From: a virus
Strand: one strand, 5' to 3'
DNA: 64,000 bases
Virus record (IMG/VR): IMGVR_UViG_3300011008_000022
Part shown: positions 6,236 to 58,200 of the stretch, one piece after another
Layout: every line of letters starts with the position of its first letter
Position numbering within the stretch: the first letter of the stretch is position 1
The notes under the pieces: generated by a model
Told to the model about the DNA's origin: nothing
The model's input: only the letters and a program-made list of their open reading frames with translations
Databases searched by the model: none
Translations under genes and position numbers: made by a program

Positions 6236-6263
6236 GTTCTGTATGTCGCTATGTCTTAGCGAC
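6236..6263 (+). repeat. family-B hairpin in the 5' leader of 6284 gene
   Basis: gttctgtatGTCGCTAtgtctTAGCGAC. Confidence 0.85.
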
Positions 6264-16822: not shown

Positions 16823-19129
16823 ATGAAATACTTTGTAAATTTCCCCTATACTGCCGAGAGTTTAAAAAATGAGTTCCGCACCCTGTCTTTGAAGTTGCAC
16901 CCAGACACGGGAGGCGATGCCGAGGAGTTCGCCGCCATGATGAACGAATACGAGCAGATCGCCCGCAACCTGTCAGGAACTAAACAACACGCCCAGAGCG
17001 AAGCAGAACGCCAGGCAGAAGAAGCCCGCCGCCGTGAGGAGGAGGAAGAGCGCCGAGAGTGGGAAGCCTACCAGGAGCGCCAGCGCCAGGAACGGGAAGC
17101 AGAGCGCAAAGCAGAGGAAGAGCGCAAAGCTAAGGCCCGCCCCATCTACGAAAAGCGCTGCAAGAAATGGGCGCACCTCATGGAAGATTTAACCCCATTT
17201 ATAGAGGCTGAAAATAATGCCTATAAAAACGAGCGCCAGGCTGCCGAGACTTTCGGCTATCGTTCTGCAGAATATAAGGAGGCAGGCAAAGCCACGAAAG
17301 CCGCCAGAACTGCCACACATGCAGCCCGCCGCCGTAATCTCTTGAAGATGGCGCAAACAGCTTTCAAGGGTGTTAAATTCTCCCTTCGTTACGATAACGG
17401 CTGGGGCGGTGGTTTTATTATCGCATGGACTGACGGCCCAAGCCTGGAAGAGTTCAAGGCTGCAACCGATTACGATCTGTTTGTTTCAGTCTGGGACACC
17501 TTCGACGGTATGACAGACTGTGCCGACTATGAGCGGGCAGATTTTACAGACTTTGCCGATAAGTACAGCGGCCATCATGGAGAGGTGGAATTTGACCGTA
17601 CAATTAGCGACGAGAACAGGCAGAAAATGGCCGACGTTTTAAAGCGTCTTAATCCTGACTTTACAGACCCAGAGGCCCGCGAGCGTTACGACTGCAACAG
17701 CTGGGAAGATATCGCCGTCTTTATAGACGAGGAAAAAATCAGAGAATTTTTCCGTATCTTTGGCGCTGACTTTGACAGCGTGACCGATGAGCAGAAGAGA
17801 GCACAGCGCACAAGCCGCCACAACTTCCGCGACTATATGGACAGCCGCAAGACCTTAGCCGGTTGGATCAACGCCCTGGCCGACTTCATCACATTTAAAA
17901 CGGATGACGAGAAGAAGGCCGAGAAGCCCGCAGAGTTTGCCCCCCGTTATGGTGCCACCCTTCGCGCACTGTTTAAGCTCGTAGGCGGTCAGTCTGCCGC
18001 ATTCTGGCAGCGCGACCCCAAAACCCGCAAGAGTTCCCCGCTGTCATTGTCTGAACTCATCGAGGCCCTGGAACGTGGCGAGGCCGTAGCCTATGGAAAA
18101 AAACATGAGTACACCGACGCAGAAGGTAATATCGAGTCCGTAATTTATTGGGGTGTAAATAATGGCGGATATAAGGTACAAAAAGCCCGTGCCGAGAAGT
18201 TCGCCGCCGCTGGTTATACTCTCAGCAGTTCCGGCCATTCTTCCACCTATGCCGACGTAGAAATTACCGGCATAACTCCAGAGACTGCCGCCGCTCTTCG
18301 TGCTGAACTCGCAGACATCGAGAGACAGCGCCAGCAGTGGGAGACCAAACAGACCGCACAGAAGCCCCAGAACAGCGCCGAGACTGCCGAGCAGTCCAAC
18401 ACACAGCCCACCGACTCCGAGGCCGTCAGCGCTCCGCAAACAGTCGTAGCAGATGCCCCCGCCGATGGCTTGCAGCTCATCGACACCGCCGAGGGTGTGG
18501 CCGTCGTCTCTGAGGACTGGAAAACGACGTATTTTAATAAAAAGCACATCAAGGCCCACGGCTGCCACTGGAACAAGGAGGCGAAACGATGGGAAGCCAC
18601 CGACCCCGACGACGTGGCAAAGGTTCGCGCATGGTTTGCTCTTCGCACAGAAGAGCAGACCACCCCAGAGGCCGACACGTTAGAGGATGCCCAGAATATC
18701 ACAGAAAACGCCCAGGACAGCGCCGAGACTGTCGAGCAGTCCAACACACAGCCCACAGACTCCGAGGCCGTCAGCGAGGACGCACAGCAGCCCGCCAGCG
18801 TTTCCCCACTCTTCGAGGCAGTGGCCGACCTCTTCCGCACCTTTGCCGACATCATCCAGCAGGCCAAACGGTGGGAGGGCGTGACCATTCCAGCCGCCAC
18901 CCTCGAACGATGCGCACAGAACACCGCCGCCCGCCTCTCTGAGGTGTGCGCCTGTCTGGGCAGTCTCACGCCTGACAGCCGCGAACAGTTCGACGCGCTG
19001 GGTGTCATCTTCTGGACGCTCTCCGACAAGATCAAGACTGGCACCGACCCCGACACCCTCCAGAGTGCCACCGACTACGCCCGCGCCCAGCTCTTCGACC
19101 TCATCGAGCGCACACAAACAGAGAACTAG
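16823..19129 (+). CDS. J-domain (DnaJ-like) protein with charged coiled coil and large C-terminal extension
   Basis: N-terminus LKNEFRTLSLKLHPDTGGDAEEFAAMMNEYEQI carries the HPD signature of J domains; E/R/K-rich helix follows; 55-nt in-frame direct repeat (AETAEQSNTQPTDSEAVS twice). Confidence 0.8.
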   Translation: MKYFVNFPYTAESLKNEFRTLSLKLHPDTGGDAEEFAAMMNEYEQIARNLSGTKQHAQSEAERQAEEARRREEEEERREWEAYQERQRQEREAERKAEEERKAKARPIYEKRCKKWAHLMEDLTPFIEAENNAYKNERQAAETFGYRSAEYKEAGKATKAARTATHAARRRNLLKMAQTAFKGVKFSLRYDNGWGGGFIIAWTDGPSLEEFKAATDYDLFVSVWDTFDGMTDCADYERADFTDFADKYSGHHGEVEFDRTISDENRQKMADVLKRLNPDFTDPEARERYDCNSWEDIAVFIDEEKIREFFRIFGADFDSVTDEQKRAQRTSRHNFRDYMDSRKTLAGWINALADFITFKTDDEKKAEKPAEFAPRYGATLRALFKLVGGQSAAFWQRDPKTRKSSPLSLSELIEALERGEAVAYGKKHEYTDAEGNIESVIYWGVNNGGYKVQKARAEKFAAAGYTLSSSGHSSTYADVEITGITPETAAALRAELADIERQRQQWETKQTAQKPQNSAETAEQSNTQPTDSEAVSAPQTVVADAPADGLQLIDTAEGVAVVSEDWKTTYFNKKHIKAHGCHWNKEAKRWEATDPDDVAKVRAWFALRTEEQTTPEADTLEDAQNITENAQDSAETVEQSNTQPTDSEAVSEDAQQPASVSPLFEAVADLFRTFADIIQQAKRWEGVTIPAATLERCAQNTAARLSEVCACLGSLTPDSREQFDALGVIFWTLSDKIKTGTDPDTLQSATDYARAQLFDLIERTQTEN

Positions 19130-37321: not shown

Positions 37322-37349
37322 GTTCTGTATGTCGCTATGCCATAGCGAC
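37322..37349 (+). repeat. family-B hairpin between minus-strand genes, + orientation
   Basis: gttctgtatGTCGCTATGcCATAGCGAC. Confidence 0.9.
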
Positions 37350-37357
37350 TCATTCTT

Positions 37358-38166
37358 TCACTCCTCAAAGTCCAGCGTCATCTGCCTGCCAGCCTCTTTG
37401 ATGCGTTTCTCGGCGATGGCGAAATACTTGGGGTCTTTCTCGATGCCTATATATTGCCGCTTCTCAATCACAGCAGCCACACAGGTAGTGCCGCTCCCCA
37501 TCGTATTGTCAAGAATTACCCCCCCGAATTGGTATAAGTCCTAATCAGATAGCGAAGCAGATCCACGGGCTTTTGTGTCGGATGGTACACCGTCGTCTCG
37601 TGCTCCTTCTGAATATGGATAATCGACTGAGGGAATTTCTCGTTAGGTCGGGTAGGGGCCACTTTCTTGATCTGCTTATCGTAGTCATACGTCCTGCCCG
37701 TCTTGAACTGTCCGTAACAGTTGTTAGTCCTCGGATGCTCCAACTTCCCTTGCGAGTGGTTCGGCTCACCAATGCCCATCTGAGGGTTATACACTGGCAG
37801 CTGCTTATAGAACACACAGATGTCCTCATGGCAGCGCATTGGCATCCTGTTCGCATTCAGGAACCCTGTTCCACGTCCTTTGTCCCATATCAGGTTATAT
37901 CGCCACAGTTTCCTGTTACTCTGCATCAGGTCGCTGGTAAACATCCCCTGACCAAACAGAGCAATCACACCTCTCGGCTTGATGATGCGCTCATAGTGCG
38001 CCCAAAGAGGCTCAAAGGGTATCATCCTATCCCATTGCGCATTCGGGTTATCCTTATGTAGCACCTGGTATGGCAAATCACAGATAATCGCATCTATGCT
38101 CTTATCTGCTATCCCTGCCATCAGTTCCAGACAGTCGCCCTGGTATATGTGGTTTGCTTCTAACAT
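37358..38166 (-). CDS. N4/N6 DNA methyltransferase (PF01555-like), reading frame broken at a G7 tract
   Basis: N-terminal part 37516..38166 has DAIICDLPY (motif IV) and HPTQKP and ends ..YTNSGG-stop. With one extra G at 37519-37525 it continues [40 protein letters not shown] (motif I) to a stop at 37358-37360. Confidence 0.8.
37519..37525 (-). repeat. homopolymer G7 (minus strand) interrupting methyltransferase 37358..38166
   Basis: Minus strand aattcGGGGGGGtaattc; 8 G would restore the frame. Confidence 0.9.
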
Positions 38167-38178
38167 ATCTCTATCTTT

Positions 38179-38206
38179 GTTCTGTCTGCAGCTATGTCAT
38201 AGCGAC
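38179..38206 (+). repeat. family-B hairpin between minus-strand genes, + orientation
   Basis: gttctgtctgcaGCTATGtCATAGCgac. Confidence 0.8.
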
Positions 38207-38211
38207 TCCAT

Positions 38212-38388
38212 CTATCCCTTTTTCTGATGTATCTCTTTTTGCATAGCCCTGGCTATTTGCTGGTAGCGCACCTTGTGAATGTCGCTCGTGGTTGAAACCA
38301 TCTGCAGGTCCCTCATATATAGCTGTCCTGCCATCGTTGCCAACCTCGCCAGCCGTTTCACCCTCGGCTCATGTATGTTTATACTCAT
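38212..38388 (-). CDS. small hypothetical protein (58 aa)
   Basis: MSINIHEPRVKRLARLATMAGQLYMRDLQM...; below track cutoff; fills the gap between two family-B hairpins. Confidence 0.4.
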   Translation of the reverse strand: MSINIHEPRVKRLARLATMAGQLYMRDLQMVSTTSDIHKVRYQQIARAMQKEIHQKKG

Positions 38389-38396
38389 TCCTTTTC

Positions 38397-38424
38397 GTTC
38401 TGTATGTGGCTATGTCATAGCCAC
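38397..38424 (+). repeat. family-B hairpin, stem variant, + orientation
   Basis: gttctgtatGTGGCTATGtCATAGCCAC. Confidence 0.9.
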
Positions 38425-39553
38425 CCGTCAAATTCCAATTCATACTGGAGGAACTTCTCGGCATACCATTTCTTGTAGGCTTTTCCACTGATCCACCAGT
38501 CGAAGATGTTTCCGGCTATTTCCTGCTCTTGCTCATCAGTCAAGCCGTCAGGCGATGAGCAATCTGAAAACCCGCTTTCCAGTGGTTCGGGTCTGGGTGT
38601 TGGATGAACCCGTAATCGTCGGTCTTTCCCCCAGCGTATCGGCTTCCAGTCTTTTCCAATACCGTACCACAGGGTTTGTTGTGGTAAGCGTTCTTTGCAA
38701 TACCCCCCCCGAACGGATGGCTATGATAGCCTTTATCCAGTTTCTTCTTACGTGAGGCCATCGCTCGTTTTCAACCGTTTTCTGTCTGGGTGGCGACATC
38801 GGACAGCAGATGCAACCTATGCGGGTAAATCCTTGGTCGTAGAGTTCGCAGTGTGGCACCTGTACCACCTTATTCAGAAATTCCCATACATCCCTTTCAG
38901 TCCAGTGGATGATAGGCGATATCAACAGTGTTTCTTTACCACTGATGCAGCCTATGGTCTTCTCTTCTTTGGCATTGGTGATATTCACCTCACCCTTCTT
39001 TCGTGTGCTCGGCGATTTGGTCGCCGATAGCTTTTCTTTCCTGAACTTCTCAAAGGCTTTCAGATCACCGCTGAATGAGTAGTTGCTAATCTCCACCTCA
39101 TTACGTTTGGCCCTGTTCCGACTCTCCTGGTGTCTGATGCCGATGAGTGTCACTTTGCCCGCACCGGCTTTCTCCTTGAACTCTTCGCAGCACCATCTTA
39201 CTTTCTTGGTAGGTAGCAGCTGCTTTCTCAGAGCAACATGGTAGATGCTATCCTTGGGTTTGATGAGTTCCACTTCTGGATATTCCCGTTTCACAAAACG
39301 GATCACCTCTGGCGGGTCCACAGAAGTCAAATTCATGTGTCCCTCGAATTGTACGCCGGCCAACTGTGCAATATGGATGAGCGCCTGACTGTCTTTGCCT
39401 CCGCTGAAAGCAAGGTAATACCCCCCCCCTCGTATCGTAGGCCAGTGCCAACTTCTCAGCCTTACGCAGTAGGCTGATGGAGTATTCCATCTTCCTGCGT
39501 AGCCGTTTGCTGGCTCTTCCATACGCTTGTGCCAATGTCATGTTTATCTTCAT
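38415..39553 (-). CDS. PAPS-reductase/DndC-like PP-loop protein, frame broken at G9 and G8 tracts
   Basis: Core YYLAFSGGKDSQALIHIA (PP-loop SGGKDS) and RIGCICCP. The natural-looking N-terminus MKINMTLAQAYG...LALAYDTRGG is in another frame and joins if tract 39421-39429 has 8 G. After tract 38703-38710 all three frames stay open, and the longest ends at 38415. Confidence 0.7.
38703..38710 (-). repeat. homopolymer G8 (minus strand) in the PAPS-reductase-like gene
   Basis: Minus strand ccgttcGGGGGGGGtattgc; all three frames are open downstream. Confidence 0.9.
39421..39429 (-). repeat. homopolymer G9 (minus strand) in the PAPS-reductase-like gene
   Basis: Minus strand gatacgaGGGGGGGGGtattac; 8 G would join the N-terminus to the PP-loop core. 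Confidence 0.9.
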
Positions 39554-39656
39554 TATATGTCTCTTATTTCCAATATTCCGAAAAAATAAGCCCCTTTTTC
39601 GTGACTTTTTCTCTTATTCTCTATTTAAATGGCAAATTAAGCAGTTTTTGACCGCC

Positions 39657-39848
39657 TTATTTTGTCAAATATAACTCCCGCTCCTCTTCATCGCAGTGGT
39701 CAATAATCGTTGGCTCCTCGCCCTTTGCTCTTTGCGGACAGAATGCTGTCGTCTGCTGGAAGCGCTCACAGCTCTGCTTCAACAGACAGCGCTCCCCATG
39801 ACAGAGTAACATCAAATGTTTTCCCATAGCTCTTAATGTTTCGTTCAT
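39657..39848 (-). CDS. small Cys-rich hypothetical protein (63 aa)
   Basis: Six Cys residues; start codon lies inside the flank of family-C motif 39838-39868. Confidence 0.5.
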   Translation of the reverse strand: MNETLRAMGKHLMLLCHGERCLLKQSCERFQQTTAFCPQRAKGEEPTIIDHCDEEERELYLTK

Positions 39849-39868
39849 TGTAAGGCGATTGCATCGCC
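39838..39868 (+). repeat. family-C motif, + orientation in the minus-strand block
   Basis: gtttcgttcattgtaaGGCGATtgcATCGCC. Confidence 0.85.
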
Positions 39869-39872
39869 GTCC

Positions 39873-40471
39873 TCAGTTAAACCATTTAATCACCGTGTCG
39901 CCCTGATAGCCTTTCACCCACACAAACCAGGCATAGGCCGTCGCGCTCCCGCTGATCTTATCAAACTCACCATTCATGGCACATAGCAGTCTCGATGAAC
40001 TGACCCATACTCGTGCCGGAGGCTGTGTCCTGAACAGGTGCTTTCTCCCTCGCCCTTCCAAAAAGGTAAGTTTGAGAAACATGCACACCTTTTTCCCCTC
40101 TGGAATAATCTGCAGCGCTTTCTCCACAAACTCTTGTGCATAGGCATAAGGCGGGTTTGTAATGATGTCCCCGTCCCATTGTAGATTGTCGATAGCCAGA
40201 AAGTCGGCCACTTCTCCATAACCTCGATCGATGATATCTCGCGAAGTAACGGAATACCCCCCCTAATAAGCACCTTACTGATGTGACCCTCGCCACAGGC
40301 AGGTTCCAGGATGGGACCGTCAAACTTTTCCAGACGTAGCAGCCACTCCGTCGCCTTTGGCTCAGTGGCATAGTAGTCACCCCAAGCCCGCTCATGGTCG
40401 GTATGGTTACTGGCACCCAGCGTCTTAAACACCGATGCCCTGCCTCCTACCCAGTCTTTCTTCTCGCTCAT
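39873..40471 (-). CDS. N6-adenine DNA methyltransferase, reading frame broken at a G7 tract
   Basis: N-terminal part has ILEPACGEGHI (motif I) and ends in frame ..VLIRGG. With one extra G at 40257-40263 it continues YSVTSRDIIDRGYGEVADFLAIDNLQWDGDIITNPPY (motif IV). Probable ATG at 40471 overlaps the upstream stop (TGATG). Confidence 0.8.
40257..40263 (-). repeat. homopolymer G7 (minus strand) interrupting methyltransferase 39873..40471
   Basis: Minus strand cttattaGGGGGGGtattcc; 8 G would restore the frame. Confidence 0.9.
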
Positions 40472-40607: not shown

Positions 40608-41672
40608 TTATAGTGTAATTTTTACTTCTACATTATCGATAGTCAGTACCACGCCGCCTCGCCAGCCACGCCTCTGTATCTCGTCTATCAGCTCCTTATC
40701 CGTGAAGTATTCAAGAGTAGTTGGCACAGCGGTCTTTCCTGGTTGCACTTGGCCATGACCAAAGCCACCGATAAAGTCATCTATGCCTCTTTCTATATGC
40801 TCATTCAGCTCCTCTTCAGCAGGGGCATGGTTGTTTTCCTCTTGCTCCTCTTCTCCCGCCACCGTGCCCTGCCGTTCTTGGCTGGGTTCTTCCACTACTC
40901 CCAGCGTATCTCCGCTGGGTCTCTCCACTGTGTCCGCTGTTTCTCCAACGGGTATTTTAGGCACTAAGCCTTTTCTTCCCTGTCGGCTCTCTCGTGGTTC
41001 AAAAGAGGAAAGATCTTTCTCATCACACCAGTAGAAACCACCAGCCAACCGTTTCTTATCGATGGCCCTGCTGATGTTCTTAATGCCCAGCCCATGTTCG
41101 GCTGCACCCATCGACTCCCACACCCTGACAACCTTCAGCGTCGAGGGGTCTATTTGTGCAACCTTGCGCTTGGCTCGGTTCTTACTTCTTCCCAACGTGT
41201 CCCGTTCACCCTGATAGGGATTTTTCGGCGTCACCCGTGTTTGCTTCCTTTGTTCCATAACTGGCGTATTTTGTTCTGATTTTAACACTTTTCGTTCCAA
41301 TTTCGGCTCTTTCCGTTCCAATTTTAACGCTTTCCGTTCTTTCTGCTCCTTTTCCGCAGGCAGAGGCATCGCCTCTGCACCATCCAGGATGGCTCTGTAG
41401 TCAAACGTCGGCATCGGGCATTCCTCTGGCGCTTCATCATGCGCAAAGTTCAGCACATGCACCATCACACTGGCAGCGCGTGTCTTATCCTCCACGAACA
41501 CAGGGCCACGCTTTTTCATCGCCTCTGTCAACACCGATAGCGTCAGCATTTTGCAGGGCGTGTCAAAGTCTAACTTCCTCCACACCTGCATAAAGGCACT
41601 GCGCGTCTTGATATATAGCGTCTGCCTCTGTTTCTGCTTACCCCATTTTTCGTATGCTTCTTTCAGTGTCAT
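40608..41672 (-). CDS. DNA-binding protein with NUMOD-like motif; no catalytic domain recognised
   Basis: VAQIDPSTLKVVRVWESMGAAEHGLGIKNISRAIDKKRLAGGFYW resembles NUMOD1-type modules of homing endonucleases. Probable start MTLKEAYEKW at 41672. Two + oriented family-A hairpins sit in frame at 40858-40920. Confidence 0.6.
   Translation of the reverse strand: MTLKEAYEKWGKQKQRQTLYIKTRSAFMQVWRKLDFDTPCKMLTLSVLTEAMKKRGPVFVEDKTRAASVMVHVLNFAHDEAPEECPMPTFDYRAILDGAEAMPLPAEKEQKERKALKLERKEPKLERKVLKSEQNTPVMEQRKQTRVTPKNPYQGERDTLGRSKNRAKRKVAQIDPSTLKVVRVWESMGAAEHGLGIKNISRAIDKKRLAGGFYWCDEKDLSSFEPRESRQGRKGLVPKIPVGETADTVERPSGDTLGVVEEPSQERQGTVAGEEEQEENNHAPAEEELNEHIERGIDDFIGGFGHGQVQPGKTAVPTTLEYFTDKELIDEIQRRGWRGGVVLTIDNVEVKITL
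40858..40920 (+). repeat. two family-A hairpins inside minus-strand CDS 40608..41672, still in + orientation
   Basis: ccaccgtgCCCTGCCGttctTGGCTGGGtt and ccactactCCCAGCGtatctcCGCTGGGtc. Confidence 0.85.
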
Positions 41673-41678
41673 CTTTTT

Positions 41679-41709
41679 GCTTCGTTCTTTGTCAGGCGAT
41701 TGCATCGCC
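41679..41709 (+). repeat. family-C motif, + orientation in the minus-strand block
   Basis: gcttcgttctttgtcaGGCGATtgcATCGCC. Confidence 0.85.
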
Positions 41710-52967: not shown

Positions 52968-54580
52968 AAGAGAATATTAAACTACTATATATAGATTTAT
53001 TTTGTGGTGCTGGAGGCACCTCTACTGGAGTGGAATATGCACGAGTGCATGGAGAAAAATGTGCTCGTGTTATTGCCTGTGTAAACCACGATGCTAACGC
53101 TATTCTATCACATCAGGCAAATCATCCTGATACGCTCCACTTTACTGAGGATATTCGTACTTTGGAACTGTCGCCATTGGTAGCACACCTGGAAAAGATG
53201 AAATTGCAATATCCTGATGCTCATGTGGTATTGTGGGCCAGTTTGGAATGCACGAATTTTAGCAGGGCAAAAGGTGGCCAGCCTCGTGACGCTGATTCAC
53301 GAACATTAGCTGAACATTTGTTCCGATATATTGAAGCCTTACGTCCTCATTATATTCAAATTGAGAATGTAGAAGAATTTATGTGCTGGGGCGAACTCGA
53401 TGAGCATGGAAAGCCTGTCAGCAAACATAAAGGCACATCATATCTCCGATGGGTACGTAATGTATGTCACTATGGTTATGATTTTGATTGGCGCATCCTG
53501 AATGCTGCAGATTTTGGCGCATATACTTCAAGAAAGCGTTTCTTTGGTCAGTTTGCTCTTCATGGCCTGCCTATTGTTTTCCCAATTTCAACTCACACAA
53601 AAGTGGTAGATGATAGTGGCATGTTCCATGACTATGAACAATGGAAACCTGTTAAGGAAGTTTTAGATTTGAATGACGAGGGGACCAGTATCTTTGGAAA
53701 GAAAAAGCCTTTATGTGAGCGTACTCTTGAACGTATCTATGCTGGTTTGGTCAAATTCGTTGCTGGTGGTAAAAAACAGCACGAGGCATGGATATTGAAG
53801 TACAACTCCATGAACAAAAACCACTATCATGTAGCGCCATCTATTGATGAGCCGTGTCCTACCGTGACAGTCCAAAACCGTCTTGGACTGGTTAAGTGTA
53901 ATTTTTTGTCAAAACAGTTTGGTGGCAGTCCTGAAGGTAAGAATATTCCTATTGATGGTCCTGCCGGTGCTATTACTACCAGGGATCATCATGCTTTCAT
54001 TACTGCCTATTACGGTAATGGTTTTAATCATTCAATAGAAGAACCTGCTCCGACTATTACAACCTCAGATAGGTTTGGTATTGTTAAAAGTGTCTTTATG
54101 GCGAACGAATATAGTGGTGGCGGCCAGATTTCTGATTTGGAAGCCCCCTGTCCTGCTGTGCTTACTACACCTAAACAGAAAATCGTTTCAGCGCAATATT
54201 TGATGAACCCCCAATACCAGAGTGAGGGAGGAAGTATAGATAGCCCCTGTTTTACTCTGATTGCCAGAATGGATAAGATGCCCCCTTATCTTATTAGTAC
54301 CGAGAAAGGACTGGGGATTGCTATTTATGAAGATGACAGCCCTATGACTAAAAAGGTTAAAGAGTTTATGGCTATGTATGGCATCGTTGATATAAAGATG
54401 CGTATGCTTAAAATTACTGAATTGAAAAAGATTATGGGTTTCCCAGAAGATTACGTGCTTATAGGAACTCAGGCAGAGCAAAAGAAATTTATCGGTAATG
54501 CTGTAGAGGTGAATATGAGCCGAGTGCTTTGTGAGGCATTATGTGCTCGTCTGGCAAAAGAAAATCGTATAGCAGTATAA
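52964..54580 (+). CDS. DNA (cytosine-5) methyltransferase
   Basis: DLFCGAGGTS (motif I), ECTNFS (motif IV variant), IENVEEF (VI), TSRKRFF (VIII), GNAVEV (X); visibly AT-richer than its neighbours. Confidence 0.85.
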   Translation: MKENIKLLYIDLFCGAGGTSTGVEYARVHGEKCARVIACVNHDANAILSHQANHPDTLHFTEDIRTLELSPLVAHLEKMKLQYPDAHVVLWASLECTNFSRAKGGQPRDADSRTLAEHLFRYIEALRPHYIQIENVEEFMCWGELDEHGKPVSKHKGTSYLRWVRNVCHYGYDFDWRILNAADFGAYTSRKRFFGQFALHGLPIVFPISTHTKVVDDSGMFHDYEQWKPVKEVLDLNDEGTSIFGKKKPLCERTLERIYAGLVKFVAGGKKQHEAWILKYNSMNKNHYHVAPSIDEPCPTVTVQNRLGLVKCNFLSKQFGGSPEGKNIPIDGPAGAITTRDHHAFITAYYGNGFNHSIEEPAPTITTSDRFGIVKSVFMANEYSGGGQISDLEAPCPAVLTTPKQKIVSAQYLMNPQYQSEGGSIDSPCFTLIARMDKMPPYLISTEKGLGIAIYEDDSPMTKKVKEFMAMYGIVDIKMRMLKITELKKIMGFPEDYVLIGTQAEQKKFIGNAVEVNMSRVLCEALCARLAKENRIAV

Positions 54581-55281: not shown

Positions 55282-58200
55282 ATGGCCGATAAACAGATAT
55301 ACATCAAAATCAGTGCGGATTCAGCACAACCAGTAGCAGCCGTAAAAGCCATGCGCAACGAACTGTCGCGCTTGCAGAAGGCGTATGATGCCATCAACAC
55401 GTCCACAGCTACTGGCGCTCAACGTGCCCAGAAACTGCAAAAGGAAATGGCCGACCTCCGTGCGCTCATCAAACAGCAGGAGGCTGACATGAATAAAGTG
55501 TCGAAGGTGATTACCAATCTGTCGAATGCGTCTTTGTCTCAGCTCAACCAGGCGCTTCGTCAGGTGAAAAAGGAAATCTCGCGCACCAGTGAGTCCAGCC
55601 CGAAACTGGAAGAGTTACGCCAGAAATACAAGGCTATTACCGACCAGATTAAGGTGATGAATGGCGAAATGATTAACATCAAAAAGCACATGGGCGAACT
55701 CTCCACGCAGACGGATTCCTGGCTGCAACGTGCCATCAATCAGCAGAAACAGCTGGTGGAGTCCACGCAGAAGACGAGTAGCGCTTATCAGGGACAGGTC
55801 AACATCCTACACCAACTCCAAAACGAACAGGCGCGTCGTGCTGTCTCTACCATCAGCGATGGGGGGGCTTCTGCCGATGCACTCCGCACCGCTCGTGCTA
55901 ACCTGGTGTCTTATCGCGACCAACTGGGTAAGGGTGGCATCCTGCCGGCATCGGGCAATGTGGCTACTGAGATCGAGCGCATCAATGCCGAACTGAAAAA
56001 GTGTGATGACCAACTGGACGCTATCGCTGGCAAGGAGAAACAGATTGAATTGACCACCGACCAACTCCAGCAAAAGGCTGATAATATCATCCTCGACCCC
56101 AAGAAATTCTCGCCAAAGGAGATAAAGGCTGCCATCGATGAGATTCAGAAGAAGTTGAACAACCTCGGCACGAATGATACTGCTCGTAAGAAACTCAACG
56201 AACAGATGAAGCAGCTGAAAAACATTCTCGATGGTGTCGATCACGAACTGGTGAATATCGGGGACCTCTTGAAGCCTGGCAACCTCCGCAAAGCACCACT
56301 CGAAACGCTCCAAAAGGCTGCAAAGCAGTTGGAGAATGAAATGGCAAAGCTCAACCGCGACCAACAGCAGTATATCGATAAGCAAAAACAACTCGCCGCT
56401 ATCCGTGGCGAGATAGAACGTACCACCGGCGCTATTAACCGTCAGGGGTCTGCATGGAAAACGACGTTTCGCAATATCTCTATGTACTTCGGTGTCTTCC
56501 AACTGTTTTCTATCGCTCAACAGAAACTGCAGGGGATGTTGCAAAGCAACCTGGCTTATTCTGACCAACTCGCCGACATCCGCAAGGTGACGGGTCTCGC
56601 CACCAAGGAGGTCAACGAACTATCTGACAGCCTGGCAACGCTCAACACGCGCTCTACGGTACAGGATTTGGCCGACCTCGCTTATCAAGGCGGTAAGATG
56701 GGATTCGGAAAGTACGGTGTAGAAGGCATGAGCGCATTCGTCCGCGCTGCCGACCAGGTAAAGGTGGCGCTGTCTGATGACCTCGGCGATGACAGCCTCT
56801 TGCAGATCTCCAAGCTCGTCGATACCATGGGACTGATACCTAAACTGGGTGTCGAACGTTCCATGCTTGCTGTCGGCTCATCCATCAACCAGCTTTCGGC
56901 CACTTCTACGGCATCAGGAACGCATATCGTGGACTTCGCGAAGCGCCTCACAGGTCTCTCGCGTATCACGGGTATCACAACGCCGGAACTACTGGCACTC
57001 GGCTCGGCTGCCGATGCACTTGGGCAGGCTCCTGAAGTCGCGGCCACGGCTTTCGGTAAACTCTTCACGTCGCTGCAAACCAACCACAACCTGATTGAAC
57101 AGCAGCTGAACATGGAAAAGGGCACCATCAACAACCTCTTCTCACAGGGTAAGGCGATGGAGGCTATTCTTCAAATCATGGAGAAGATGCGCGAAAAGGG
57201 TAATATGAATGCCCTCGGCAACATCTGGAAAGACCTCGGTTCTGAGGGACAGCGCCTGATAGGTGTCATGGCTACCATGTCTAAGAATGTCGATACCGTT
57301 CGTGCTCATGTCGAAGAGTCTAACGTCGCCTTTGAGGAAGCTACGTCTCTTACCAATGAGTACGCTCTGAAACAGGACACAGCCAATGCCATTCTCGAAA
57401 AGGGTAACAACCTCTGGGCAAAGGCTTTCACCAACCCTGAAGGGGTGGATATGGTCAAGCAGATGGCTCAGGCATGGTACGACCTCTCGAAGTCGATGAC
57501 TTCCAACGAGGCTTCCATGTGGATAATGAAAAATCTCCTCGGACTGATTGCTGCTGAATTGAAGATACTCCTCGCACTCCTGCCGGCAATCCTCACAGGT
57601 TTGCTCTTCAAGGGTGCCTCTGTCGCTATCATCGGCCTCGCATCGTCTATCGGACTCATGGGTAAGAATGCGGTACTCGCCACCCTGCAGACAAAGGGAT
57701 TGGTGGCTGCATGGCACGCCCTGAATACGGCTCAGAAGATGAACGTCATCGGCCTCTGTATCTCTCTTCTCACGGGTCTCGCTATCGCCATCGCTTCTGT
57801 CATCAAGAAAGGCAACGAGGCTACTACATGGATGCAGGGCTTCAATAGCACCATGTCCGACTTCAACCGTGAGTTTGCTATTGCTGACGACCGCCTGAAG
57901 CGCTTTAAGAAGGCTATCGATGATGCTGCTACTGGCTCACGTCAACGTGCAGCTGCCATCCGTAATTTCAACAAGGAATATGGGCAGTATCTCTCGAAGA
58001 TGCTCACCGAGAAATCTACGGCTGATGATATCGCCAAAGCCTATAAGGAGGTGGTGAAGCAACTCCGTGCGAAGATTGCCCTTCAGATGAAGGAAAAGGA
58101 TATCACCTCACAGGTGGCTCCTCGTGTCGGATGGTCTGCCGACCGCCTCACAGAATACGACAACGTGGCAGGTGGCTCTGCCTACAATGGCACATGGCTG

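Follow-up and report, generated by a model that had tools for sequence, protein, structure and literature searches.

Length-variable poly-G tracts set the reading frames of three DNA-modification genes in a Prevotella-linked phage and are probable contingency loci

A DNA-modification module broken by four poly-G tracts

The IMG/VR virus record IMGVR_UViG_3300011008_000022 comprises 64 kb of DNA, which we analysed as a whole and refer to as the window. Three adjacent genes for DNA modification lie on its minus strand: a beta-class methyltransferase (MT1), a PP-loop gene resembling PAPS reductases, and a second, small methyltransferase (MT2). All three are interrupted by runs of guanine, which we name T1 (37519), T2 (38703), T3 (39421), and T4 (40257); tract T2 should not be confused with the phage of the same name. 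The features of the module are collected in Table 1.

When 8 G is assumed at T1, MT1 matches PF01555 over profile positions 1-221 of 221 (E 2.8e-29, 103 bits against a cut-off of 26.7), together with phrog_67 and models of Type II methyltransferases; a CcrM-like match falls below the cut-off. MT2 matches phrog_799, "DNA methyltransferase" (E 1.4e-61), and returned no Pfam match in the profile search. The PAPS-reductase-like protein, in which SGGKDS is present, matches PF01507 (E 3e-21, 76.6 bits against a cut-off of 22.5) and phrog_424, and has weak, partial matches to BrxP (2.7e-11 over 75 residues) and SspD (8.6e-5). In the window, none of the partner genes DndD/E, SspB/C, or the BREX core occurs in the neighbourhood, and no res or hsd genes adjoin MT1 or MT2. 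MT1 is a match to Type II or orphan beta-class enzymes, MT2 belongs to a phage methyltransferase family, and neither falls among the Type I or Type III restriction-modification enzymes. On these matches, MT1 and MT2 are probably orphan phage methyltransferases, and the third gene encodes a putative modification enzyme of the PAPS-reductase type, similar to BrxP and SspD.

An earlier note, made from the sequence alone, had claimed that four G7-G9 tracts, each followed by TAWT, lie at the frame breaks of these genes, and that 8 G restores both methyltransferases and the junction at 39421. A run scan and in silico changes of tract length confirm both statements. The four tracts fall within 2.8 kb on a single strand, each at the frame break of an otherwise intact gene. 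Translations made with 8 G at T1 and at T4 yield the complete MT1 and MT2, and 8 G at T3 restores the N-terminal junction of the PAPS-reductase-like protein (..TRGGYYLAFSGGKDS). The window consensus at T1/T2/T3/T4 is 7/8/9/7. T1, T3, and T4 therefore read OFF, their lengths differing from 8 G, and MT1, MT2, and the PAPS-reductase-like gene are all OFF.

Table 1. Features of the modification module in the window, with the share of homologues in frame at each tract
Feature	Position	Strand	Character	In frame, tract-less homologues	In frame, tract-bearing homologues	Lengths in relatives
MT1	37358..38166	-	Beta-class N6/N4 DNA methyltransferase, DLPY ... HPTQKP ... GSGTT; 269 amino acids at 8 G; split in window			
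Tract T1	37519-37525	-	G7 then TAATT; between motif VIII and motif I of MT1; in-frame length 8 G, one G short	16/16	5/10	G6-G9
PAPS-reductase-like PP-loop gene	38415..39553	-	SGGKDS core, Cys-rich CICCPM motif, C-terminal WWISGK..WYAE.FLQ helix; interrupted at T2 and T3			
Hairpin	38531..38560	-	GCTCATC-(16 nucleotides)-GATGAGC in window; consensus GCTCNTC-16 nucleotides-GANGAGC; 7 base pairs; closes linker			
Linker insertion	38561..38702	-	Clade-specific; no stop in any of three sense frames; blocks invariant at all codon positions			
Tract T2	38703-38710	-	G8 then TATTG; end of PAPS-reductase-like catalytic core (C-terminal junction); sets linker frame	64/64	12/39	G6-G10
Tract T3	39421-39429	-	G9 then TATTA; immediately upstream of SGGKDS PP-loop (N-terminal junction); in-frame length 8 G, one G long	43/45	10/32	G6-G10
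MT2	39873..40471	-	Small DNA methyltransferase, motif I EPACGEG, motif IV NPPY; 199 amino acids at 8 G; split in window			
Tract T4	40257-40263	-	G7 then TATTC; between motif I and NPPY of MT2; in-frame length 8 G, one G short	3/3	6/12	G7-G9

Runs of seven guanines are not in themselves in surplus in the window (8 overlapping matches to G7 words against 5.85 expected, not above chance); context, clustering, and position alone stand out. The word GGGGGGGTAWT occurs 4 times against 0.01 expected from dinucleotide shuffles of the window, and GGG is the rarest glycine codon there (7%). Elsewhere in the 64 kb, the only runs of G or C of at least 6 are a G6 at 17940-17945 (minus strand) and a G7 at 55861-55867 (plus strand); the latter, in the tape-measure gene, had been named as the other long run, which is borne out, the G6 being added at this cut-off. 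The tape-measure G7 served as a control, and we reject it as a fifth tract: 6/6 relatives read GATGGTGGGG (GGTGGGG) at the site, the synonymous change from GGT to GGG being specific to the window, and over 3.5-4 kb of the gene the closest relatives are free of indels.

A family of phages linked to Prevotella

A distant BLAST search of the GenBank phage collection returned only two tiny matches at ~71% identity, and that collection thus holds no annotated phage relative. Relatives of the PAPS-reductase-like gene are numerous in IMG/VR, in JGI/ENA metagenomes, and in GTDB genomes, with the rumen and the gut as their sources; we designate them by L numbers. The closest are L002 and L084 (97.6%, L002 over 7 kb), then L083, L085, and L086 (~95%), then L001/L081, L082, L087, and L088 (81-85%). 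Nearer still, L182 is 99.99% identical to the window over 7.6 kb, and L183 shows 0 mismatches over 5.5 kb. L169, which lies on the same contig as L007 (NZ_BEWV01000204.1, 90,283 base pairs), was co-assembled with the isolate Prevotella sp. MGM1, and L167 (100.6 kb) was binned with a rumen Prevotella metagenome-assembled genome. With related contigs of 90-107 kb, these records point to a family of ~100-kb tailed phages linked to Prevotella and Bacteroidales.

The tracts are conserved while their lengths vary

We scored the frame state at each tract with the conserved protein segments that flank it as markers, and all counts refer to unique sequences. Homologous codons carry tracts in relatives down to ~65-70% nucleotide identity, with conserved flanks and lengths of G6-G10. 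Synonymous sites are saturated in the distant comparisons (synonymous divergence, dS, > 2), and the tracts survive this full synonymous turnover although GGG supplies so few of the glycine codons. Run lengths in the loci of the clade, counted over unique contexts, are bimodal: 861 runs of G4, 124 of G5, and 12 of G6 are followed by 101 of G7 or more. Across all four sites, 33/93 tract-bearing homologues are in frame, against 126/128 tract-less ones.

Near-identical genomes differ chiefly or solely at these positions. L010 and L129 share 10,823 nucleotides with 0 mismatches and a single indel, which is T2; T2 is also the single indel between L083 and L085, which differ by 40 mismatches over 6.7 kb. 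The single indel between L008 and L009 is T4, and L011 and L107 are separated by 16 mismatches plus a tract of G6 in one and G10 in the other. When the window is compared with its close relatives, frame-breaking indels inside the three genes occur only at the tracts, the remaining indels being intergenic. Among MT1 relatives of at least 88% identity in the protein database, 345 members belong to full-length clusters and 232 to clusters whose frame is lost exactly at the tract (..NSGG or ..MGGG); the OFF allele of MT1 in the window recurs residue for residue on 4 other contigs. The states of T4/T3/T1 are ON/ON/ON in L082, OFF/ON/OFF in L001, OFF/OFF/ON in L088, and OFF/OFF/OFF in the window, so the switch states look to combine independently among relatives. 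The earlier note had proposed such a comparison of tract lengths, and had allowed that relatives might lack the homopolymers and that an out-of-frame length might be fixed. What emerged is that the relatives carry tracts at conserved sites, that lengths vary, and that in-frame and out-of-frame alleles are both numerous, with no out-of-frame length fixed.

Could these differences be consensus errors, the true tracts all being in frame? Homopolymers of G7-G10 are error-prone on several platforms, and many of the related contigs come from metagenome assemblies of low coverage. The same out-of-frame lengths, however, return when one strain is assembled separately: L182 has tracts of 7/9/8/7 (in the order T4/T3/T2/T1), the same configuration as the window, and L183 again has 7 G at T1, but 9 G at T2. 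Miscalling would also have to produce both too-short and too-long errors at the same site, in SPAdes-style and JGI contigs alike and in the hundreds of database members that are truncated, and yet spare the tape-measure G7 and other coding homopolymers, which lack such indels. An artefact would, moreover, leave the conservation of the tracts against codon usage, across saturated synonymous divergence, without explanation. Plain assembly error is thus very unlikely as the whole explanation.

In the window, none of the three genes is in frame, as would also be expected of decaying pseudogenes, with the modification module disappearing and the homopolymers simply marking where inactivating indels occurred. 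The ratio of nonsynonymous to synonymous substitution rates (dN/dS), however, is 0.03-0.17 upstream and downstream of every tract, including comparisons with dS > 2 or saturated; it is 0.04-0.11 in the core of the PAPS-reductase-like protein and 0.03-0.07 on both sides of T4 in MT2. Such low ratios on both sides indicate that protein-level selection still acts on the segments that OFF genomes carry out of frame, and hence that these genes are not pseudogenes. Close relatives carry no other frame-breaking lesions, in-frame alleles are common, and the tracts themselves are conserved. We reject pseudogenization on the strength of the dN/dS values and give it next to no weight.

Compared in this way, the sites have several properties of contingency loci: the tract lies inside the coding sequence, its length is polymorphic in near-identical genomes, its length sets the frame, and selection seems to keep the tract in place.

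Tract T2 selects among three open frames

In tract-less homologues, the catalytic core of the PAPS-reductase-like protein is joined to the C-terminal WWISGKxYxxWYAExFLQ motif in one frame by a linker of 12-22 residues. The clade of the window has instead an insertion of 140-300 nucleotides that begins at T2. In 23/37 unique relatives the linker is free of stops in all three frames, which shuffles of matched composition reproduce in at most 0.2% of cases. In relatives it often holds second and third tracts (G7, G8A7, G9A6, G10, C9). In silico, T2 lengths of 7, 8, and 9 each open a distinct C-terminal frame. The G9 frame encodes a linker peptide that is conserved among relatives (GIAKNAY..PCGTVL..GFIQHPDPNHW) and ends at a stop before the C-terminal motif; the G7/G10 frame reaches that motif through a different peptide; and the G8 frame, found in the window, yields neither. 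The earlier suggestion that 7 G or 9 G selects different C-termini thus holds insofar as the C-termini differ, but the 9 G frame stops short of the conserved motif, whose frame is that of 7 or 10 G. We conclude that T2 is a selector of the linker frame, not a simple on/off switch. In its wrong frames the C-terminal segment would be fused, re-initiated, or lost.

The hairpin that closes the linker is paired in 20/20 distinct sequences, with one pair covarying (C-G in 12, A-U in 7, G-C in 1). Its loop, invariant at synonymous positions, contains the stops of both alternative frames (TGA 38550-38548 and TGA 38542-38540) and a TTG (38543-38541) that opens the open reading frame (ORF) of the C-terminal motif.

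These features bear on a further explanation, in which the tracts act at the level of expression: RNA polymerase would stutter on G8-G9, or ribosomes would shift on G GGG GGG, and the tracts would adjust enzyme levels, not serve as heritable switches. Full-length enzyme would then be made from any tract length, and DNA length would consequently be near-neutral and drift. In-frame alleles at chance level in ORFs under strong purifying selection would agree with this, as would the retention of 7/9/8/7 (T4 to T1) by the same strain in another assembly. At T1 in the window, the TAA met directly after G7 stands as the 0-frame codon, and a stop so placed is a classic stimulator of shifting. Near T2, a canonical -1 heptamer, G_GGT_TTT (38573-38567), lies 6 nucleotides upstream of the hairpin, in a phase that suits a -1 shift in the window subclade; such a shift would join the linker frame to the C-terminal motif, and the predicted product (..HPDPNHWKAGF/SDCSSPDGLTDEQ..) is near the in-frame sequence of L094. 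Yet the phase of the heptamer differs among lineages (phase 0 in 13, 2 in 10, 1 in 5) and is compatible with -1 only in the window subclade and two others. We reject a shift at G_GGT_TTT as the general join between linker and motif on these counts and keep it as a local possibility. The hairpin is equally conserved in lineages that have no need of a shift, and no comparable stimulatory element was found at T1, T3, or T4.

Programmed sites, moreover, normally hold one fixed out-of-frame arrangement, whereas at T1, T3, and T4 close relatives have, at one and the same site, lengths corresponding to -1, +1, and 0. Bacterial transcriptional slippage is documented mainly for runs of A or T, which also counts against recoding on guanine tracts. 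We regard recoding at the level of expression as an unlikely account of the tracts; ribosomal recoding and transcriptional slippage may contribute to DNA-level switching or take its place, and are not needed.

A strand-specific context at the level of DNA

Tracts of G7 or longer in the clade are followed by TA in 71% of cases and by CA in 15%, whereas G4 and G5 runs are followed by TA in only 8-13%; the strand bias of the long runs is 96:5. The TA occupies all three codon phases (GG-TAT, G-GTA, and GGT-ATT), and in relatives such as L011, L018, and L079, where the coding strand carries the tract as poly-C, G(n)TA is retained on the G strand. Since it is found in any codon phase and with either coding strand, the G(n)-TA/CA context is a property of the G strand at the level of DNA and not a codon or mRNA signal. 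Its persistence on the G strand where the mRNA is poly-C weighs further against recoding. A GGTA...TACC hairpin was considered as a general 3' anchor of the tracts and rejected, because the enrichment of TACC stems only from the homologous sites T2 and T3.

Contingency loci for phage DNA modification

The tracts exist, are conserved and length-polymorphic, and set the frame of genes that are under purifying selection. We think it likely, with a probability of roughly three in four, that the four poly-G runs are conserved, hypermutable simple-sequence contingency loci that switch the phage's DNA modification. Slipped-strand mispairing during replication of the phage DNA would add or remove a G at high frequency and, the tracts lying inside coding sequence, each change of length would toggle the gene. 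MT1 and MT2 would each be toggled by one tract, and the PAPS-reductase-like enzyme would be acted on by two. With independent toggling, the progeny of a single burst would be a mixture of modification states, in at least 8 combinations. Some progeny would bear the mark that protects against the restriction-modification system of the next host, and others would lack a mark that modification-dependent defences attack, a form of bet-hedging. The origin of the variation at the level of DNA in vivo, the reversibility and frequency of switching, and its benefit in evading defences are what we infer from comparison of sequences.

The earlier suggestion that the phage stochastically switches its own modification state is supported by homologous tracts of G6-G10, by the near-identical pairs, by the presence of both allele classes, and by purifying selection. 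Its allusion to phasevarions goes too far: the methyltransferases are not of Type I or III, and nothing shows a methylation-controlled regulon.

Several observations weigh against switching by contingency loci. The in-frame share is about what random lengths would give, which would also fit expression that is independent of DNA length. The lengths come from assembled contigs, some of low coverage (3.8x for L182), and homopolymer miscalls therefore make up some share of the length variation; the samples of L182 and L183 may also be related to the source of the window. The commonest T2 length in the window subclade, G8, suits neither productive frame. A simple slippage model, finally, gives the conserved TA/CA context no role. 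This context is, like the three-frame-open linker, unexplained, and either could lead to a new mechanism.

If the contingency reading is true, abundant Bacteroidales phages of the gut and rumen apply the contingency principle to their own epigenetic armour, switching several genes independently in an arrangement that is conserved throughout a large uncultured family. That would bear on the prediction of host range and on the means by which phages withstand the highly varied defences of Prevotella, both restriction-modification and modification-dependent. It would also bear on the treatment of "frameshifted" phage genes in metagenomic annotation, where many are split or discarded.

Further tract-bearing genes and other features of the family

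A total of 155 distinct tract contexts occur in the fetched loci, 101 of them in homologues of the window's three genes. Other tracts in relatives fall in a radical-SAM-like gene, a C5-cytosine methyltransferase (PF00145), and arrays of ..IEYE(L/M) modules; the modules and the radical-SAM-like gene were sought in the window and not found there.

The radical-SAM-like gene (CxxxCxxC as RGCPNKCRWC, with a weak match to PF04055) lies directly downstream of the PAPS gene (L003 at 7346, L008/L010 at ~7254, L092 at 2601) and has its own G7-G8 tract near the 5' end. The arrangement suggests that the radical-SAM-like and PAPS-reductase-like genes form a two-enzyme modification pathway. The arrays consist of tandem mini-ORF modules of 45-65 amino acids that end in ..(I/V)(L/F)(I/V)EY(E/D/S)(L/M/I)*, with one G7-G10 tract each, or 5-6 tracts per 600-800 nucleotides (L090 9905-10472; L012 10051-10868; L161 1-540; L162 ~109-385; L007 ~4984). 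They adjoin motifs of C5-methyltransferases (..SPSGPALCLAGGG.. and ..RKLTPRECYSLMGVP..). The mini-ORF modules look like phase-variable target-recognition cassettes. In the window itself, a segment at 54323-54496 (plus strand), just 5' of the tape-measure gene, weakly matches the C-terminal motifs of a C5-cytosine methyltransferase (..RMLKITELKKIMGFPEDY..GTQAEQKKFIGNAV); in L161 and L162, tract-bearing modules take the place of the sequence upstream of this point.

A clade from the human gut (L024-L047 and L069-L077; locus ~6141) has an independent tract at another codon of the PAPS gene, where QAGVKF has become QGGVKF through a change from CAG GCT GGA GTA to CAG GGG GGG GTG. This tract is mostly G8 and in frame, and its 3' context is TG, not TA; G9 and G10 variants are frameshifted, and tract-less or interrupted versions occur as well. 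Taken with the tracts in further modification genes, this independent tract indicates that poly-G switching of DNA-modification genes is recurrent in these phages.

A bolder reading extends the argument to a design shared by Prevotella/Bacteroidales phages of ~90-105 kb. DNA-defined tracts (at least 7 G followed by TA/CA on the G strand) would sit in every modification gene, counted here as two to three methyltransferases, the PAPS-reductase-like enzyme, the radical-SAM partner, and the C5-methyltransferase mini-modules, and would give a combinatorial epigenetic repertoire. T2 would act as a frame selector that produces fused or split isoforms, and behind the conserved flank there would be a dedicated factor or sequence-dependent slippage, not passive polymerase error. 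We put this forward tentatively and, taken as a whole, consider it doubtful.

Some PHROG families cover only one side of the tract in MT1: phrog_12862 matches only the part before it, and phrog_18293, phrog_8769, and others only the part after it. Split annotation of this methyltransferase family may consequently be common in phage databases.

Two other features of the window lie near the module. The palindromic repeat GCTATGRCATAGC, which forms a hairpin, is present in ~14 copies in the window (28 both-strand matches against 2.5 expected), among them those at 6248, 8131, 11855, 22263, 27481, 30146, 37334-37346, 38191-38203, 38409-38421, 54607, and 63074. Near the tract genes it stands just 5' of gene starts, with ACAGAAC and an A-rich stretch between it and the ATG, and it may serve the phage as a promoter, a terminator, or a regulatory element. 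Upstream of the module, in the region of 41301 within a minus-strand gene (40608-41705, a 365-amino-acid ORF), L002 has a 39-nucleotide in-frame insertion in a lysine/glutamate-rich repeat (..KERKALKLERKEPKLERK..), a polymorphism of repeat number.

Comparison with known systems

To our knowledge, reports of contingency loci in phages are all very recent and concern receptor-binding genes of Campylobacter phages and A-tracts of T-even phages, agt included. The poly-G tracts of the Campylobacter phages reportedly lie in receptor-binding-protein genes and alter host recognition. They were described in Fletchervirus phages (Sorensen et al. 2021, Cell Rep 35:109214, as cited in PMC12823448) and resemble ours in being poly-G in phage coding sequences whose length shifts the frame and diversifies the progeny. 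Here, in contrast, the tracts lie in DNA-modification genes of a Prevotella-linked phage of ~50% G+C, share a conserved G(n)-TA/CA context, and include one with a three-frame-open linker. A paper on the prophage CJIE1 was considered as a precedent for poly-G tracts in phage methylases and rejected, the tracts there being in host genes. The literature that we searched contains no account of poly-G tracts in DNA-modification genes, whether for methyltransferases or PAPS reductases, of phages from Prevotella or from the gut. What is new here is the G(n)-TA/CA context tied to the G strand and the three-frame-open linker with its stop/start hairpin.

In bacteria, the mod genes carry a repeat within the methyltransferase ORF and are turned ON and OFF by slipped-strand mispairing (reviewed in PMC12707154). 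The phasevarions of Haemophilus, Neisseria, Helicobacter, and Campylobacter (Type III and Type I mod) share with the present module a DNA methyltransferase under repeat-driven ON/OFF control, but they are chromosomal restriction-modification genes whose switching reprogrammes host expression. The genes described here are putative orphan phage methyltransferases and a PAPS-reductase-like enzyme, and the unit of selection would be the phage.

Programmed -1/+1 frameshifting and transcriptional slippage are known from dnaX, prfB, insertion sequence (IS) elements, and the tail chaperones of phages (reviewed in PMC5009743). Such sites likewise place a slippery or homopolymeric sequence at the junction of two frames, and the heptamer and hairpin near tract T2 resemble a -1 signal. 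Their sequence and frame are fixed among relatives, however, whereas here lengths vary and in-frame alleles are common. In the "Quimbyviridae" phages of Bacteroidetes, a reverse transcriptase is split over three frames and programmed frameshifts were assumed (Benler et al. 2021, PMC8008677); this gene may deserve re-examination for homopolymers.

The agt gene of phage T2, in which an A9 tract switches DNA glucosylation (Gomez, Barrick & Waters 2025, bioRxiv; PMC12633550), is a homopolymer in a phage DNA-modification gene that toggles modification, and bet-hedging of the kind proposed here has been shown for it: switching escapes the modification-dependent TgvAB at the cost of sensitivity to McrA/BC (PMC12633550). 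The A9 of agt lies in a glucosyltransferase gene, and ordinary A/T runs like it are numerous in that AT-rich genome. In the phages described here, several tracts of G7-G10 are instead concentrated in a modification module and kept against codon usage throughout the family, and it is from comparison among relatives that their switching is proposed.

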